DNA from: an archaeon
GTDB taxonomy: Archaea > Nanobdellota > Nanobdellia > SCGC-AAA011-G17 > GW2011-AR17
DNA length: 64,000 nucleotides
NCBI GenBank assembly: GCA_018692925.1
Contig: JABHLH010000002.1
Coordinates: 38,576 to 102,575 of the forward strand
Reading direction: 5' to 3'
Position numbers and translations under genes: made by a program. Shown piece after piece: positions 15,419-30,829 of the stretch. Below the pieces are notes generated by a model. The model worked only from the letters and a program-made list of their open reading frames with translations. It had not been told where the DNA came from and made no database searches. The stretch's first letter is position 1; each line of letters opens with the position of its first letter.

Positions 15419-16027
15419 ATGCAAAAAGCAATAGCTCTATTATCTGGTGGAATTGATTCTCCAGTAGCAATTTACAGAATGCAAGAACACTTTGACATAG
15501 TCGCTGTTCACTTTCACCAACTTCCTTTAACTGGTGAACATGAAATTGAAAAGGTAAAAGAATTAGCAAAAAAACTTAATGTGAAAAAATTATATTTAAT
15601 TCCTTTTGTTGATGTTTTCAAAGAACTTGTAGAAAAATGTAATCCTAGAGACTATTTTATTCTTTCAAAAATTGCAATGTTTAAAGCAGCTGAATTTATT
15701 GCAGAGAAAGAAAAAACTAACTTTCTAATCACAGGTGAAAATCTTGCACAAGTTTCTTCACAAACCTTATCTAATTTAAAATCTATAGAATCTCAATTAA
15801 AATTAAAAATATTAAGACCTTTACTAACTTTTGACAAACAAGAAATAATTAACATAGCAAGAGAAATTGAAACTTACGAAATTTCAAAAGGTCCAGAGAT
15901 TTGTTCTTTATTGGGTCCAAAAAATCCTTCAACAAAATCTTCAGTTTTCAAAATAAATCTTGAACTTCAAAAAATAGATTTGAATAAAATAATTCAAGAA
16001 AAAATAAAAGAAGCTAGTATCCTCTAA
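15419..16027 (+). CDS. thiI: Stand-alone PP-loop ATP pyrophosphatase domain of tRNA sulfurtransferase ThiI
   Basis: Exact PP-loop LLSGGIDSPVA. About 200 aa, matching the ThiI C-terminal domain. No THUMP domain in this ORF. Confidence 0.7.
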   Translation: MQKAIALLSGGIDSPVAIYRMQEHFDIVAVHFHQLPLTGEHEIEKVKELAKKLNVKKLYLIPFVDVFKELVEKCNPRDYFILSKIAMFKAAEFIAEKEKTNFLITGENLAQVSSQTLSNLKSIESQLKLKILRPLLTFDKQEIINIAREIETYEISKGPEICSLLGPKNPSTKSSVFKINLELQKIDLNKIIQEKIKEASIL

Positions 16028-16709
16028 TGTCAACTTCTTCAAAGGCTTCAGAACATATTATTTTAAAATTTTCCATTTCTTCTTTTGTATAAATTACTTC
16101 ACTTTTCAAATCTTCGTTAATAATTAAATTTCTTTTATCAAACTGTTGTAAAACGTATCTTTTACTTCCTTTCAACCAAGAACAAATCTTTTTGATATCT
16201 TCTTCTGTGGTTAAACTTCTAACTAATGTTGTTCTGAACTCATAATCCTTACCAGAATTTTTTATTAATTCTACACTTCTTTTTATTTTTTCTAAATCTA
16301 CTTTTACACCACAATTTCTCTCATAACTTTCTAAAGAACTTTTTATATCCATTGCAATAAAATCAACATATGGGATTAACTCTTCTAAAACTTCTGGTCT
16401 TGTTCCATTACTATCTAACTTTACTAAAAAACCTTTATCTTTTACTTTTTTTACAAACTCTAAAAGTCCTTCACTTAATGTTGGTTCTCCACCTGTAATT
16501 GTAATTGCATCTAATTTACCTTTTCTATCGTCTAAAAAACTTAAAATTAATTCTTCACTAATATCTTCTCCTTTTTCAGAAAATAGGCTTAACTCTGGAT
16601 TATGACAAAAGGGACATCTAAAATTACATTTAGGAAGAAAAAGAACGGCCGTAATCTGGCCAGGGTAGTCAATTAAAGAACTCCTAAGAATTCCTTTAAA
16701 ATTCAACAT
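16014..16709 (-). CDS. nrdG: Anaerobic ribonucleotide reductase activating protein (radical SAM)
   Basis: CNFRCPFCHN radical-SAM cluster motif. Lies immediately downstream of nrdD. Confidence 0.85.
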   Translation of the reverse strand: MLNFKGILRSSLIDYPGQITAVLFLPKCNFRCPFCHNPELSLFSEKGEDISEELILSFLDDRKGKLDAITITGGEPTLSEGLLEFVKKVKDKGFLVKLDSNGTRPEVLEELIPYVDFIAMDIKSSLESYERNCGVKVDLEKIKRSVELIKNSGKDYEFRTTLVRSLTTEEDIKKICSWLKGSKRYVLQQFDKRNLIINEDLKSEVIYTKEEMENFKIICSEAFEEVDIRGY

Positions 16710-16920
16710 TTTTTACAACTTCCAAAATCTCTTCTTCAGAGACTTTCTCTTTATTGAAAGCCTCTAAAGTTCTTCCGTATTTACTTTCTAAACTAGACTT
16801 CATACAAAAAGTTTTTCTATCAAAAAACTCAGCCTTTTTTCCTTTATTCCATTGTGTCACAGGTCTATGATATCCTACAACTCTACTATATACTTCACAT
16901 TGTTTTCCACATTTACTCAT
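16696..16920 (-). CDS. NrdD C-terminal glycyl-radical domain as a separate small ORF
   Basis: MSKCGKQCEVYSRVVGYHRPVTQWNKGKK carries the RVxGY glycyl-radical motif. The ATG at 16920 is preceded by the Shine-Dalgarno sequence AAAGGAGGTGA. Overlaps the nrdD stop by 8 nt. Confidence 0.65.
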   Translation of the reverse strand: MSKCGKQCEVYSRVVGYHRPVTQWNKGKKAEFFDRKTFCMKSSLESKYGRTLEAFNKEKVSEEEILEVVKNVEF

Positions 16921-18892
16921 TCTGCTCACCTCCTTTTGTGCTGACTACAGCTTCATATGGGCACTCATGATGTTCTCCTGCAATGTATCCATGCTCTGGA
17001 CAAATACTAAATGTTGGAGTTATTGTATAGTATGGTATTCTATATGTGTGTGCAATTCTTTTTACTAATTTTTTACACGCTTCAATACTATCTATTTTTT
17101 CTCCAATAAAACAGTGGAACACAGTTCCTCCTGTATACTTACATTGCAATTCTTCTTGGCTATCTAAAGCTTCAAAAATATCATCTGTTGCATTCACTGG
17201 TAACTGTGAACTATTTGTATAATATGGTTCTTCTGTTCCAGCTGTAATTATATTTGGATATTTCATCTTATCAATTCTTGCCAATCTATAACTAGTTCCT
17301 TCTCCAGGTGTAGCTTCTAAATTATAGATGTGTCCTGAATCTTCTTGGTATTGTTTTAATCTTGATCTCATAAAATCTAAAATCTCAATTGCAAAATCTC
17401 TTCCTTCATCATCAAGCATATCTTTCTTCAAGAAATTCAAACAACATTCATTCATTCCAATTAATCCAATTGTTGAAAAATGATGGTCTAAATTTTCTAG
17501 ATATCTTTTTGTGTAAGGCAACAATCCATATTCCATATATCTTGTAACAACCTTTCTTTTAATTTCTAAAGAATTTTGAGCCATATCCATTAAGATTTTT
17601 AATCTTCTAAAGAATTCGTCTCTATCTTTACTAACAAATCCTAATCTTGGTAGATTAATTGTAGCAACTCCAATAGAACCTGTATTTTCTCCAGAACCAA
17701 ACAATCCTCCAGTTTTACTTCTAAGTTCTCTTACATCAAGTTGTAATCTACAACACATACTTCTAACATCTGTTGGTTTCAACTCACTGTTAACAAAATT
17801 TTGGAAATAAGGGATACCATATTTTGAAGTCATTTCAAATAATATATTTGCATTATCACTATCCCAATCAAAATCTTTTGTAATGTTATAAGTTGGTATA
17901 GGGAAAGTAAATATTCTTCCATCAGCGTCTCCTTCCATCATACATTCCATGAAAGCTTTATTGATCATATCCATTTCCTTTTGATAATCTTTATACTTGT
18001 TTTCTTGTCTCTTTCCACCAATGATTACTTTTTCTTCTGCCAAATCTTCAGGTACTGTCCAATCAAATGTAAAATTTATGAAAGGTGTTTGTGTTCCCCA
18101 TCTGCTTGGTGTAGCAATATTAAATAGTAATCTTTGCATTTGTTGTTTAACTTCTTTGTAAGTCATATTATCTACTCTTACATATGGAGCTAGATAAGTA
18201 TCTACAGAGGACAAAGCTTGAGCTCCTGCCCATTCATTTTGCATTGTTCCTAAGAAATTAACCATTTGTCCAATTACAGTATCAAAATGCTTTGGTTGTT
18301 TTGTTTGTAACTTTCCATAAACTCCACCAAAACCTTCTTCTAACAATTGTCTAAGTGACCAACCTGCACAGTAACCTGAGAACATACTCAAATCATGTAA
18401 GTGGAAATCCCCATTTGAATGTGCATTTTTAATTTCTGCAGGATAAATATTATTCAACCAATAATTAGCAGTAATTTTTCCAGAGATGTACAAAATCAAA
18501 CCTCCAAGAGAAAATCCTACATTACTATTTTCATTTACTCTCCAATCAATTTGATCAAGGTATTCTTTCATTGTACCTTCAACATCTAATAATACTTTTT
18601 TACTCTCTCTTTCTCTCCTTCTATTCTCTCTATAAATGATAAAAGATTTTGCTGCTGCATGATCATTGTCTTTTATTAGAACTTCTTCTATTGAATCTTG
18701 AATTTCTTCTACTGAAGGAATTTGATAAGGATTTTTTTCTTCAACCATTCTAGCAACTTTTTGTGCTAGTTCTTGTGCTTTATCTTTACTACCAATTCCA
18801 GTTGCTTTCATTGCACTGAATATTGCTTCTGCTATTCTCTCTTTATTGAAAAGAATAATACTTCCATCTCTTTTTTTTACATGTGTTACCAT
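16913..18892 (-). CDS. nrdD: Anaerobic ribonucleoside-triphosphate reductase (class III) catalytic polypeptide, lacking the glycyl-radical motif
   Basis: 659 aa with an N-terminal ATP-cone and the class III core. Ends ...CPEHGYIAGEHHECPYEAVVSTKGGEQNE before the RVxGY motif. Confidence 0.9.
   Translation of the reverse strand: MVTHVKKRDGSIILFNKERIAEAIFSAMKATGIGSKDKAQELAQKVARMVEEKNPYQIPSVEEIQDSIEEVLIKDNDHAAAKSFIIYRENRRRERESKKVLLDVEGTMKEYLDQIDWRVNENSNVGFSLGGLILYISGKITANYWLNNIYPAEIKNAHSNGDFHLHDLSMFSGYCAGWSLRQLLEEGFGGVYGKLQTKQPKHFDTVIGQMVNFLGTMQNEWAGAQALSSVDTYLAPYVRVDNMTYKEVKQQMQRLLFNIATPSRWGTQTPFINFTFDWTVPEDLAEEKVIIGGKRQENKYKDYQKEMDMINKAFMECMMEGDADGRIFTFPIPTYNITKDFDWDSDNANILFEMTSKYGIPYFQNFVNSELKPTDVRSMCCRLQLDVRELRSKTGGLFGSGENTGSIGVATINLPRLGFVSKDRDEFFRRLKILMDMAQNSLEIKRKVVTRYMEYGLLPYTKRYLENLDHHFSTIGLIGMNECCLNFLKKDMLDDEGRDFAIEILDFMRSRLKQYQEDSGHIYNLEATPGEGTSYRLARIDKMKYPNIITAGTEEPYYTNSSQLPVNATDDIFEALDSQEELQCKYTGGTVFHCFIGEKIDSIEACKKLVKRIAHTYRIPYYTITPTFSICPEHGYIAGEHHECPYEAVVSTKGGEQNE
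16926..16933 (-). promoter_or_regulatory. Shine-Dalgarno sequence (GGAGGTGA) for the glycyl-radical small ORF
   Basis: Minus strand reads aaaaGGAGGTGAgcagaATG. A comparable AGAGGTGA precedes the GTG start of the class II RNR gene. Confidence 0.5.
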
Positions 18893-18902
18893 TTTTACTC
18901 CC

Positions 18903-19349
18903 CTAAATTATTTTTTGTATTTCGGCCTCAAGTTCTTGTATATCTCCAATATCTTTGTGTATTGAAGCATACCTGATATAGGCAATTTTATCAGTTTTTT
19001 TCAACAAACTCAAAACCCATTTCCCCAAAACTTTACTTTCAACTTCATTTGCTTTATAATTTCTAACTTTTCTCTGTAATCCATCAACCATATTATCAAT
19101 TGCTTCCATTGTCACTGGTCTTTTTTCAAAAGATCTTACGAATCCTTCTTTAATTTTTACTCTGCAAAAAGGTTCTTTTCTGCCATCTCTTTTTAAAACA
19201 TAAACTGGAAATTCTTCAATTCTTTCATATGTTGTAAACCTTTTATTACAGTCCAAACACTCTCTTCTCCTTCTTATTGATTTGTTTTCTTCAGTATTCC
19301 TTTTATCTAATACTTTCAGATCTGGACTTGCACAATATGGACATTTCAT
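18903..19349 (-). CDS. nrdR: Transcriptional repressor NrdR (zinc ribbon plus ATP-cone)
   Basis: MKCPYCASPDLKVLDKR...RRRECLDCNKRFTTYE. 148 aa. Confidence 0.85.
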   Translation of the reverse strand: MKCPYCASPDLKVLDKRNTEENKSIRRRRECLDCNKRFTTYERIEEFPVYVLKRDGRKEPFCRVKIKEGFVRSFEKRPVTMEAIDNMVDGLQRKVRNYKANEVESKVLGKWVLSLLKKTDKIAYIRYASIHKDIGDIQELEAEIQKII

Positions 19350-21199: not shown

Positions 21200-21931
21200 T
21201 TAAAAAACTTTTGTTTCATTTATAATTTGATATCTTTCTTTTAATTTTGTATTTGGTGGACAATAACCTTTTATTTTATAGATTTGCCATTTGGTAAGAT
21301 GTTTAGAACTTTTAAAACCAATTTCTTTTATGAATCTTTCAATATCTTTTTTTCTTTGAATCATTATTGAATGCACTGCATTTTTATCTTTTTTTCCTTT
21401 GTAAGAAGGTTTTTGATAAATATTATATCCTAATTCTTCAAGCATAAATCTCACTCCTTTTATTATTTTTTTGGAAGTCATTCCTAATTTTATTCTAGGA
21501 CGATTATGTTTTCTATTTTCTATTTTCACAGAATAATTTTTATTGAAATATATTGAACCATCAGTATCAAAAATACCTCTTAAAAAAAACTTCCATAATC
21601 TTTTATTTTTTAGGATACAATCAGGAATTTCATGATCTAATTTAACTCCTGATTTTATACCTAATTGCTCAAAAAAAGAAACAATTTTTTCATTAAAAAC
21701 ATATATCCCATATGTTCCATTTTTTTCATAATTTTTTGCAATAATTTCTTTTCCTAAAATGGGTTTAAAGATATTTGAATTATATATAGGTAAGACATGG
21801 TTATCATAATATTCTCTCTCTTCAGTTATATCTCCATTTATTGCATATTCCTGATATTTTGTAGTTTTACTAATACAACCATCACCTAAATGAATTCCAA
21901 TTATTTCGGCTAATTCTTCAGATATTTCCAT
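21200..21931 (-). CDS. LAGLIDADG homing endonuclease, double-motif single-chain type
   Basis: Motif 1 LAEIIGIHLGDGCIS and motif 2 WKFFLRGIFDTDGSIYF. 243 aa, free-standing, directly upstream of the intron-containing tRNA. Confidence 0.8.
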   Translation of the reverse strand: MEISEELAEIIGIHLGDGCISKTTKYQEYAINGDITEEREYYDNHVLPIYNSNIFKPILGKEIIAKNYEKNGTYGIYVFNEKIVSFFEQLGIKSGVKLDHEIPDCILKNKRLWKFFLRGIFDTDGSIYFNKNYSVKIENRKHNRPRIKLGMTSKKIIKGVRFMLEELGYNIYQKPSYKGKKDKNAVHSIMIQRKKDIERFIKEIGFKSSKHLTKWQIYKIKGYCPPNTKLKERYQIINETKVF

Positions 21932-29053: not shown

Positions 29054-30829
29054 TTAACATTTTTTACAATTATTATTACCAAGATATAAAACTTGTTTTT
29101 CTCTACTACCATATCTATATACAGTAATTCCTTTACATTTATTCTTCCATGCTAACATGTAAGCTCTTTTCACATCGCCTATACTTGCTTTCTTAGGAAG
29201 GTTTATTGTTTTTGACACTGCATTGTCAACATTCTTTTGAAAGGCTGCTTGCATCTCTATATGCCTCTCTAATGGGATCTCTAAAGAAGTCATAAATAAT
29301 TCCTTTATTTGTTTAGGTACACTTCTAACTCCTTTTAGGCTCCCTTTATTTGCAATACTTCTCATCATTCCTTTCTTATAGAATCCTGTATACCTTGCAA
29401 GTTCTTCAAATCTTTTATTTACTTCAAACAATTTCATTCCGTTTAATATTTCTCTCATATAAGCTACTGCAAAGATTGGTTCAATACCTGATGAACATCC
29501 TGCTATGATACTAATACTTCCTGTTGGTGCAATTGCTAACAAACTTGCATTCCTTCTTCTTTTCTTTAAGCTACTTCTTTTAAAATTTGGAAATGCTCCT
29601 TTTTCTCTAGCCAACTTTTCAGATTCTTCTCTAGCTTTTTTATTAATAAATTTCATAACACTGTCTGCAAGTTTAACAGCTTCTTTAGAATCATAAGGTA
29701 TTCCTAACTCAATTAACATGTCTGCCCAACCCATAACACCTAATCCTATTTTTCTATTACTCAAACACATTAATTCAATTTCTTTGCTTGGATATTTATT
29801 TACTGTTACAACATTATCTAAGAATCTAACTCCTATTTTCACAGCTTTTGCTAATTTAACCCAATTAACATCTCCTTTCCTTGTAAACTTTGATAAATTT
29901 ACAGAACCTAAACAACAAGATTCTCTTTCAAATAGTGGAACTTCTCCACAAGGATTACTTGCATAAATATGATTTAATTTTTTCAAATTATTTTTTCTAT
30001 TTATTTCATCAATGAATAAAATTCCTGGCTCCCCATTCTCCCAAGCATTTTTACAAATATAATCATAAACTTCTCTAGAATTAAACTTCTTAACATTTCT
30101 ACCTTTATCATCTTTCAACCAATAATTTTGTCCATGCAGAACTTTTCTCATAAAATCATCTGTTATAGCGACTGAGATATTAAAATTTTTCAAATCTCCA
30201 TTTTCTTTTGCTCCAATAAATTCAAAAATATCTAAATGTGTAATATCTAAAACACCCATCATTGCTGCTCTTCGAATTCCACCTTTCTTCATAATTTCTG
30301 CAGCTTTATCAAAAACATACATAAACGAAACAGGTCCTGAAGCTTCTCTATTACTTGTTTTTATCAAACTTCCTTCTGCTCTAATTTTTGAAAAAGAATA
30401 ACCTACTCCTGCTCCACTTTGGAATATCAAGGCAGATTCTTTTAAAGTTTCAAATATATCTTTTATTGAGTCTGGTAAATCTAAAACATAACATGCACTC
30501 AATTGTTTTCTTGTTGTTCCTGCATTTGTAAGGCAAGGTGTATTTGGCAAAAATTCTAAATTTTTCATAACTTCAAAGAATTCATTTTCCCATTTCTTTT
30601 TTTCTTTCTTTTCTACTTTTGCAACATACTTAGCAACTCTTCTAAACATCTGTTCTGGATTTTCTACAACATTTCCTTTACTATTTCTTATAAGATATCT
30701 TTCATTAAGAACTGTCATAGCATGTAAACTTAAATTTAATTTATTCTCTAATTTTAGAATTGTTTTCAAATCTTTAGAATTCTTTTTAATTCTATTAACT
30801 TTCACTTCCTCAATTTTCTTAGAAGTCAC
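29054..30829 (-). CDS. nrdJ: Class II (adenosylcobalamin-dependent) ribonucleotide reductase
   Basis: NTPCLTNAG, SNPCGEVPL and SCCLGS active-site motifs. GTG start preceded by the Shine-Dalgarno AGAGGTGA. Confidence 0.85.
   Translation of the reverse strand: MTSKKIEEVKVNRIKKNSKDLKTILKLENKLNLSLHAMTVLNERYLIRNSKGNVVENPEQMFRRVAKYVAKVEKKEKKKWENEFFEVMKNLEFLPNTPCLTNAGTTRKQLSACYVLDLPDSIKDIFETLKESALIFQSGAGVGYSFSKIRAEGSLIKTSNREASGPVSFMYVFDKAAEIMKKGGIRRAAMMGVLDITHLDIFEFIGAKENGDLKNFNISVAITDDFMRKVLHGQNYWLKDDKGRNVKKFNSREVYDYICKNAWENGEPGILFIDEINRKNNLKKLNHIYASNPCGEVPLFERESCCLGSVNLSKFTRKGDVNWVKLAKAVKIGVRFLDNVVTVNKYPSKEIELMCLSNRKIGLGVMGWADMLIELGIPYDSKEAVKLADSVMKFINKKAREESEKLAREKGAFPNFKRSSLKKRRRNASLLAIAPTGSISIIAGCSSGIEPIFAVAYMREILNGMKLFEVNKRFEELARYTGFYKKGMMRSIANKGSLKGVRSVPKQIKELFMTSLEIPLERHIEMQAAFQKNVDNAVSKTINLPKKASIGDVKRAYMLAWKNKCKGITVYRYGSREKQVLYLGNNNCKKC

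Follow-up and report, generated by a model that had tools for sequence, protein, structure and literature searches.

Small free-standing proteins that supply a glycyl radical to a separate enzyme are, according to a 2026 review of glycyl-radical enzymes, known solely as spare parts for formate lyases, with Y06I of phage T4 functioning as one for pyruvate formate-lyase (PMC13450708). Ribonucleotide reductases (RNRs) with a divided chain are covered by reviews up to 2026 for class I and class II, with none for class III, and full-text literature searches, whose coverage left most subscription journals outside, returned neither a split class III RNR nor a spare part of the NrdD type. In the single-chain class III enzyme of Thermotoga maritima (TmNrdD), the zinc motif CxxxHx6CxxC, the finger-loop motif SMCCR and the radical site Gly621 have been described (PMC4493059). 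Here we describe a locus in a 64,000-nucleotide stretch of the archaeal contig JABHLH010000002.1 (the window) that very probably encodes a class III (anaerobic) RNR with a naturally divided catalytic chain, made as two proteins by separate translation, the radical subunit acting in trans. This two-gene form of the enzyme is large in number, apparently undescribed, and widespread in bacteria and archaea.

One NrdD chain carried on two genes

The nrd cluster of the window comprises four tightly packed, head-to-tail genes on the minus strand, in the order nrdR, nrdD (large), nrdD (small) and nrdG, an order that is the same in all close relatives. The genes, together with the signals and motifs on which the comparison turns, are the following.

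18903..19349, minus strand: nrdR, 148 amino acids, first in the cluster, with Pfam Zn_ribbon_NrdR and ATP-cone
16913..18892, minus strand: NrdD large subunit, 659 amino acids, with Pfam ATP-cone and NRDD; stop codon TAA at 16913..16915
16696..16920, minus strand: NrdD small subunit, 74 amino acids, with Pfam NRDD; ATG at 16918..16920, stop codon at 16696..16698
16014..16709, minus strand: nrdG activase, 231 amino acids, with Pfam Radical_SAM and Fer4_12
16913..16920, minus strand: 8-nucleotide stop/start overlap ATGAGTAA of the large and small open reading frames (ORFs), the small ORF lying in the +1 frame
16926..16936, minus strand: Shine-Dalgarno sequence AAAGGAGGTGA for the small ORF, within the 3'-terminal codons of the large ORF, which translate it as K-G-G-E
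17759..17773, minus strand: SMCCR motif, residues 378-382, in the finger-loop cysteine region of the barrel
16961..17002, minus strand: predicted zinc ligands C631, H634 and C644 of the large subunit (CPEH-x9-CP), from alignment to TmNrdD
16909..16911, minus strand: codon of Cys4, predicted fourth zinc ligand, in the small subunit; aligns with C608 of the TmNrdD CPVC knuckle
16873..16875, minus strand: codon of Gly16, predicted radical glycine; its column is invariant in alignment A1 and aligns with TmNrdD Gly621

Against the family models for NrdD (Pfam PF13597, NRDD; NCBIfam NF006126/TIGR02487), the large ORF matches NRDD over positions 1-525 of 562 (E = 1.7e-178), in addition to the ATP-cone, and NF006126 over positions 2-646 of 684 (1075 bits, cut-off 548), and its residues 153-645 align to TmNrdD 101-606. 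The chain ends at profile column 525 with the C-terminus ...HECPYEAVVSTKGGEQNE*, and the RVxGY radical motif is absent from it. That motif (KCGKQCEVYSRVVGYHRPV) is present in the small ORF, which covers positions 526-562 of 562 in NRDD, 646-683 of 684 in NF006126 and 605-643 in TmNrdD. The two ORFs therefore tile both models and the T. maritima enzyme with no gap and no loss and together amount to exactly one NrdD, a match that lies far beyond chance. The initial annotation, made from the sequence alone, had placed the end of the 659-residue ORF ahead of the radical motif, and the motif with a CGKQC knuckle on a 74-residue ORF in another frame with an 8-nucleotide overlap; both statements are borne out, the frame being +1 on the minus strand. 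It had also described the flanking nrdG and nrdR as intact, and both are indeed intact, with the Pfam matches listed above, the nrdR stop lying 10 nucleotides ahead of the nrdD ATG and the ATG end of nrdG sharing 14 nucleotides with the 3' end of the small ORF.

In the large subunit, the finger-loop columns of alignment A2 are invariant for C429 and R430 and at least 90% conserved for S426, M427 and C428. The small subunit starts M-S-K-C4-G-K-Q-C8-E-V-Y-S-R-V-V-G16-Y and contains, from its N-terminus onwards, C4, the radical loop RVVG16Y, the conserved WNKGKKAEF helix and a 35-residue C-terminal extension; residues Y11-S-R-V-V-G16-Y17, R19-P20, W24, G27-K28, E31 and R35 are invariant in 15 small proteins. 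Its Pfam and NCBIfam matches are to NRDD and the NrdD models only, the radical family of the pyruvate formate-lyase (PFL) type not being matched. As a radical-domain hidden Markov model finds a single match in the window, the small ORF is the only radical domain available to the barrel encoded there. Small subunits of 112-115 residues elsewhere (P0014, P0015 / L012 209-556) have an extra CxxC...CxxC before the radical loop, and their partner large subunit retains a complete CPNC knuckle.

The chain is broken within the last zinc knuckle (C-P / x-C), after the third predicted ligand and ahead of the fourth, a position that goes beyond what the initial annotation had recognized. The tail of the large ORF runs C631-P-E-H634...C644-P-Y-E-, followed by 12 residues and the TAA. 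The stretch from the third ligand to the fourth is longer in the window than in the unsplit relative P0033 (...DCTYENCKNKCEVYSRVVGY...) by about 43 nucleotides, and these contain the stop codon, the Shine-Dalgarno sequence and the start codon. In a structural model of P0033 with a predicted local distance difference test score (pLDDT) of 82.9, the break maps to residues 691-699, where no helix or strand is assigned, and the block mean confidence is 91 at the break and 68-74 over the radical domain. In a PDB search, the last 72 residues of the large ORF gave no match as a query on their own, and the full-length query did. Several unsplit relatives (P0032, P0033, P0035, P0037-P0041) carry an NrdR-type zinc ribbon (PF22811) fused ahead of the ATP-cone at the N-terminus of NrdD; in the window, nrdR is a gene of its own directly upstream.

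The GGAGG core of the small-ORF Shine-Dalgarno sequence sits 8 nucleotides ahead of the ATG (16920), in agreement with the good spacing noted in the initial annotation, and GGAGGTGA occurs a single time in the 64-kb window, counting both strands. Six further long ORFs of the window have GGAGG at 7-10 nucleotides from an ATG, so that it is a real signal for initiation in this genome. A GTG at 16929 that could serve as an alternative start falls inside the Shine-Dalgarno sequence itself, and the 'GGE' kept in large-ORF tails is explained by the Shine-Dalgarno sequence being read as protein.

The junction is retained across relatives that were reached through exact-protein look-ups, the matches listed in the large-ORF genome and metagenome scans being at most 63% identical. 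Its DNA is identical in three independent assemblies from different samples, and the split, the Shine-Dalgarno sequence and the start codon are retained in relatives whose large subunits are 69-92% identical to that of the window (L176, about 90-92%; L010, 76%; L178, 69%). In these three, AAGGAGG(TGA) lies 6-8 nucleotides upstream of the start, which is ATG, ATG or TTG. The large and small ORFs of this close clade overlap by 8, 14 or 26 nucleotides or are separated by a 1-nucleotide gap, and the flanking sequence differs. Where only gene calls were available, P0018 (79% identity) has a large ORF, an 82-residue NRDD ORF and nrdG in the same order, and P0020 has no small ORF called in its 114-nucleotide gap plus overlap, probably because of overlap with an extended large-ORF tail. 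Relative to L176, the ratio of non-synonymous to synonymous substitution rates (dN/dS) is 0.082 for the small ORF (19 synonymous, 11 non-synonymous), 0.092 for the large ORF and 0.198 for nrdG, so that purifying selection acts on the small ORF as it does on the large one. The two ORFs are thus conserved, under purifying selection, equipped with their own initiation signals and together one complete NrdD, and the proposal of the initial annotation that an independently translated radical subunit, rather than a random frameshift, lies behind the arrangement is supported.

An intein or homing-endonuclease scar was considered as the origin of the split and rejected, since inteins of relatives lie at other sites of the large ORF and no endonuclease remnant is found at the junction. 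In P0017, the large subunit of the closest relative (1086 amino acids; L176/L177 2501-5761), about 430 residues after ...SMFSGY form an intein with a weak match to LAGLIDADG, and the large-subunit gene of the window is free of it; P0026, P0042 and P0044 carry inteins at a second site, after ...SRWGTQ.

Distribution in cells and viruses

The arrangement is very widespread, which the initial annotation had not anticipated. The census covers relatives of this NrdD subfamily, drawn from the best 80 loci per scan. Among the 120 homologues nearest to the large ORF, 68 are without the radical motif, and a neighbour-joining tree implies at least seven transitions between the split and unsplit states. 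When fetched loci were classified with the radical-domain hidden Markov model, 102 were split and 47 unsplit (149 classifiable), and within L001-L092 the numbers were 70 and 19, both pooled counts (102/149 and 70/89) including 12 initial loci, to which small-ORF matches had led. The unbiased scans alone gave 55 split and 17 unsplit loci in genomes and 38 split and 30 unsplit in metagenomes. A search of related genomes for the same two-ORF arrangement, which the initial annotation had suggested, was therefore positive.

The geometry of the split loci is consistent in orientation and variable in spacing. From L013 onward (scans and follow-up look-ups), all 96 split loci have their radical-domain ORF on the same strand as the large ORF and downstream of it, in relative frames 0, 1 and 2 in 24, 30 and 42 of them. 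Separations between the large and small ORFs reach 358 nucleotides elsewhere in the family, with in-frame stops between the genes; at the other extreme, the first-ATG start rule produces spurious long negative gaps in high-GC genomes (e.g., L089), so that the negative extremes are unreliable. Provided that at least about 1 kb of downstream sequence is available, a locus contains a radical domain, in the NrdD ORF itself or in a separate downstream ORF; the one exception is L158 (contig Ga0256405_10001837), a split-type large subunit with the tail ...CPKCDEELLKKKVLEMGILGDKCCN and no radical-domain ORF in 2.4 kb downstream.

Searches with the small ORF retrieved small proteins almost exclusively. 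A first search gave 15 proteins, all of 41-115 residues, and an exhaustive search of 1.84 billion representative proteins gave 3091 matches, with 149 of the best 150 having 49-194 residues. Homologues of the small subunit thus span 41-194 residues, and many of them, including dozens of distant ones, begin M-x-K-C-G. With a proteobacterial small ORF as query, 4225 clusters were matched, the best 120 all encoding 52-91 residues, and these proteins are named 'hypothetical protein' or bear the name of the full enzyme. Annotation pipelines already name some small ORFs 'nrdD': the 63-residue ORF of Aquabacterium olei is 'nrdD' in RefSeq, and those of Ralstonia and Paracoccus are 'hypothetical protein' in GenBank.

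The nature of the break is clade-specific. In the window and in several DPANN-type archaea, the two chains share a zinc knuckle. In Spirochaetota, the large subunit has a heptad-like tail, as read by eye from the sequence, and the small subunit of about 180 residues consists of a heptad-like N-terminal stretch, the radical domain and an apparently thioredoxin-like domain (CPNCPP...APTV), which suggests that these subunits may associate by helical pairing and that the radical subunit may carry a built-in reductant; this type occurs in L030, L049, L057, L067 and about 30 further Treponema/Spirochaetota loci. Proteobacteria have short basic tails and a small protein of about 60-70 residues.

Split NrdDs are also found in cultured organisms that use this enzyme, among them Treponema lecithinolyticum ATCC 700332, Treponema sp. 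OMZ 840 and JC4, Aquabacterium humicola and Pararhodospirillum oryzae, and, in a plasmid and chromid collection, in Ralstonia solanacearum (133 records), Cupriavidus metallidurans CH34 and Paracoccus species. The CH34 genome paper assigns NrdDG to Rmet_5137 and Rmet_5139, skipping the gene between, and gives NrdDG as reported essential for anaerobic growth of C. eutrophus H16 (PMC2864759). The radical-domain ORF of CH34 is placed by tblastn where Rmet_5138 lies, which suggests that the small gene has been overlooked in this model organism.

In viral sequences, the small-subunit profile matched 470 stretches of IMG/VR. In 62 of the best 80 loci, the ORF is free-standing, neither a large NrdD nor NrdG being present within 10 kb (L004 6001-6207, L191, L257 10001-10162 and 59 more); most of these ORFs have 43-60 residues (e.g., MAKCGAKCEIYSRVCGYFRPVSNWNKGKKEEFKDRK), and another 17 loci carry an ordinary full-length NrdD. 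In L004, the small gene follows a patatin gene, which it overlaps by the 8-nucleotide ATGAGTAA stop/start also present in the window, beside tail genes; in L257, it directly follows a Sak4-like annealase gene, near exonuclease, helicase and primase genes of a phage replication module. The viral copies conserve the radical glycine and its flanking motif (YSRVxGY.RP, WN.GK). Of 52 that were compared, 38 resemble the small subunits of cells more closely than they do the radical domain of an unsplit NrdD, and 31 share the M-x-[KR]-C-x start of the cellular proteins. The 62 free-standing contigs did not overlap with the 44 viral contigs matching the large ORF, in a scan limited by peptide patterns; these 44 comprised 37 unsplit and 2 split cases. 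The phage MT835493.1 was considered as a further standalone case and set aside, as it carries a full-length unsplit NrdD together with NrdG.

Proposed function and competing explanations

A division of labour between the two proteins can be proposed as follows. One transcript would serve both subunits, the small one being made by coupled re-initiation from its own Shine-Dalgarno sequence and ATG. The large subunit would provide the ATP-cone, the ten-stranded barrel with the finger-loop cysteines and three zinc ligands, and the small subunit would contribute the fourth cysteine of the zinc knuckle and the entire glycyl-radical loop. NrdG, the product of the translationally coupled downstream gene, would take a hydrogen atom from Gly16; the small subunit would dock with its glycine loop inside the barrel of the large one, where the shared zinc site, completed by Cys4, may help to clamp it; and the docked subunit would then generate the thiyl radical that starts nucleotide reduction. 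Both polypeptides are probably required for activity, since the large subunit is without any radical glycine.

For single-chain NrdD, established structural work holds that the glycine, which is buried, has to move out for activation together with the entire C-terminal domain; the zinc domain, which probably contacts NrdG, moves with it (PMC4493059). With a detached radical domain, this outward movement becomes trivial, and activation would presumably take place on the free or loosely bound small subunit. Oxygen destroys glycyl-radical enzymes by cutting the chain at the radical glycine, the one known remedy being the GrcA/YfiD spare part of pyruvate formate-lyase, and a detachable subunit would accordingly let the cell replace an 8.6-kDa piece rather than a 75-kDa barrel, a speculative benefit of the split to which the phage data lend support. 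We tentatively suggest, with somewhat less than even confidence, that the small protein may be a detachable, replaceable radical cofactor that is activated by NrdG off the barrel, exchanged after oxygen cleavage, and carried by phages to re-arm or boost the RNR of the host. If so, it would extend spare-part systems for the first time beyond pyruvate formate-lyase to another glycyl-radical enzyme, as a class III RNR counterpart of GrcA/YfiD made obligatory, and would represent a new and very small class of phage auxiliary metabolic gene of about 50 residues.

In practical terms, thousands of small ORFs named 'hypothetical protein' or after the full enzyme are mis-described, and large ORFs are annotated as complete NrdD without the residue that makes them work. 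Whether a radical domain can be activated away from its barrel, how NrdG recognizes it and whether it is exchanged after oxygen damage are the questions raised, and cultured Ralstonia, Cupriavidus, Paracoccus and Treponema make them directly testable.

Several points weigh against an enzyme divided into two separately translated proteins, or at least against its details. We infer the assembly and activity of the split NrdD, and the zinc bridge between its chains is derived from alignment. In a sister clade, the large subunit has a complete CPKC knuckle and the small one still starts MKCNKKC, so that Cys4 is best regarded as a candidate ligand. AlphaFold models the isolated small protein with low confidence (pLDDT 61.5), as a hairpin around Gly16 with helices after it, a result that may fit a partner-dependent fold and proves nothing. 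All members of the clade of the window share the +1 frame, so that the frame data of this clade alone are compatible with recoding, and the split proportions reflect the composition of the census, in its restriction to one subfamily and in its small-ORF-derived first loci.

Among the explanations that compete with the favoured one, the most durable accepts that the split enzyme works and holds that the fission was selectively neutral, the linker having tolerated breakage and the two proteins having become an obligate and permanent pair with no gain in exchange, repair or regulation. This is possible but rather doubtful. In its favour, the tree requires at least seven changes between the split and unsplit states, the break points and apparent means of association vary by clade (the knuckle, coiled-coil-like tails or basic tails), and the unsplit proteins of L087, L161 and L163 have long, variable linkers at the same place. 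The viral copies that stand alone, without a large subunit or NrdG in 62 of the best 80 loci, are nevertheless hard to explain unless the small protein joins a barrel that was not co-translated with it, and their greater resemblance to cellular small subunits than to unsplit radical domains (38 of 52) points in the same direction. The split state is, moreover, the majority among the sampled loci, which suggests that it is at least not disfavoured.

A second explanation casts the phage-borne small proteins, and possibly some cellular ones, as decoys or inhibitors that titrate away NrdG or obstruct the barrel. Phages commonly employ small mimics, and the viral contigs concerned have no NrdG or barrel gene nearby. 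An inhibitor would not, however, need the radical glycine, YSRVxGY.RP and WN.GK, all of which the viral copies conserve, and the copy in the window is the only radical domain that its barrel has, being the one hidden Markov model match. The T4 protein Y06I sets the precedent of a functional spare part (PMC13450708), and inhibition is accordingly regarded as unlikely.

Programmed +1 frameshifting, left as an alternative in the initial annotation, or else transcriptional slippage would fuse the ORFs into a full-length NrdD, with the Shine-Dalgarno sequence serving as a stimulator as in prfB. The constant +1 position of the small ORF in the clade of the window, the Shine-Dalgarno-like sequence just upstream of the large-ORF stop and runs of A6-A7 in the overlaps of L176 and L178 are compatible with it. 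Yet the four junctions have no slippery codon or motif in common, that of the window (GAG CAG AAT GAG TAA) being free of any A-run, and the Shine-Dalgarno sequence stands 6-8 nucleotides from the start, a distance that is optimal for initiation, whereas in prfB it stands 3 nucleotides from the shift site. A start codon is kept at the right place in every relative, including the dozens of distant small ORFs beginning M-x-K-C-G. No stable or stimulatory RNA structure was found by folding of the junction, which is less structured than shuffled controls (z = +1.35), and an Rfam scan of the window returned two tRNAs only, with no RNA element at the nrdD junction. As all three frames are represented across the family, at distances that vary up to 358 nucleotides and with in-frame stops between the genes, frameshifting is ruled out as a general mechanism, and for the window it is very improbable.

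A last explanation, in which the split stems either from a pseudogenising indel of recent date, the other alternative of the initial annotation, or from faulty sequencing or assembly, and the organism relies on its other RNR (29054..30829), has a negligible probability, for although a second RNR gene is indeed present and a single-base frame change would look like this in an isolated sequence, the junction is identical in three assemblies, the close relatives are uniformly split down to 69% identity with differing junctions (the opposite of the uniformly unsplit relatives that the initial annotation had named as a refutation), the small ORF has a dN/dS of 0.08 and an invariant radical motif, nrdG and nrdR are intact and overlapping neighbours, and no addition or removal of one base restores a normal NrdD or yields the observed arrangement, given the roughly 43 extra nucleotides with stop, Shine-Dalgarno sequence and start relative to P0033.

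The split nrdD is set in an archaeal window, whose other genes include those for aIF2-gamma, aIF5B, ABCE1 and an ATP-dependent DNA ligase; the identical protein at NCBI bears the source label '[archaeon]', and in the match list of the large ORF the neighbouring entries are Woesearchaeota and Nanoarchaeota. The second reductase gene of the window is the following.

29054..30829, minus strand: second RNR, 591 amino acids, with Ribonuc_red_lgN and lgC; GTG start preceded by the Shine-Dalgarno sequence GAGGTGA

The organism thus has an oxygen-independent or aerobic-type RNR besides the split class III enzyme, and GAGGTGA ahead of its start (30829) agrees with the earlier remark that the GTG of this class II-type gene has the same kind of Shine-Dalgarno sequence as the small nrdD ORF. 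Downstream of the nrd cluster, the 3' end of a convergent ThiI/QueC-like ORF (15419..16027, plus strand) overlaps the 3' end of nrdG by 14 nucleotides (16014..16027), an overlap that is also kept in L001, L002 and L176. About 2 kb upstream of the cluster, a free-standing ORF of 243 residues (21200..21931, minus strand), outside any obvious host gene, has a LAGLIDADG_3 domain.

Comparison with known systems

The single-chain NrdDs of T4, E. coli and T. maritima (PDB 1H78, 4COI, 4U3E) share with the locus of the window the barrel, the finger-loop motif, the ATP-cone, the RVxGY loop and the adjacent NrdG gene, as well as, by prediction, a zinc motif of the CxxH...CxxC type as in T. maritima. In contrast to them, the chain in the window is broken between the third and fourth zinc ligands, and the radical loop resides on a protein of 74 residues.

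Among RNRs of divided construction, NrdJa/NrdJb of Pseudomonas aeruginosa (class II) and NrdA of phage Aeh1 (class I) likewise build a catalytic chain from two adjacent genes and place a C-terminal functional module on the second polypeptide, and in the window, too, two adjacent co-oriented genes together make up one canonical chain. They belong to other RNR classes, however, and the piece detached here holds the radical cofactor rather than the reducing cysteine tail. In phage Aeh1, nrdA is split by a mobile endonuclease gene, whereas no such gene lies between the halves in the window. With class I RNRs in general, the likeness is conceptual only: the radical is stored on a polypeptide other than that of the active site, but the radical subunits are non-homologous, and a metal or tyrosyl radical is moved over a long distance in place of an inserted glycine loop.

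The closest functional parallels are GrcA/YfiD of E. coli and Y06I of T4, each a small free-standing protein consisting essentially of one glycyl-radical domain, presumably activated by the radical-SAM activase of the parent enzyme and inserted into a barrel without a working loop, with homologues carried by phages that do not have the parent enzyme. The comparison with autonomous glycyl-radical modules drawn in the initial annotation is therefore apt as an analogy, although by sequence the small protein falls outside the GrcA/YfiD family: its family is NrdD (PF13597 columns 526-562) and not the PFL-type Gly_radical family, its gene directly follows that of the barrel, with translational coupling between the two, and, to judge from the aligned knuckle, it probably contributes a zinc ligand. 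Furthermore, the partner barrel never had a radical domain of its own, so that the small protein would be an obligatory subunit, rather than the backup that GrcA/YfiD represents.

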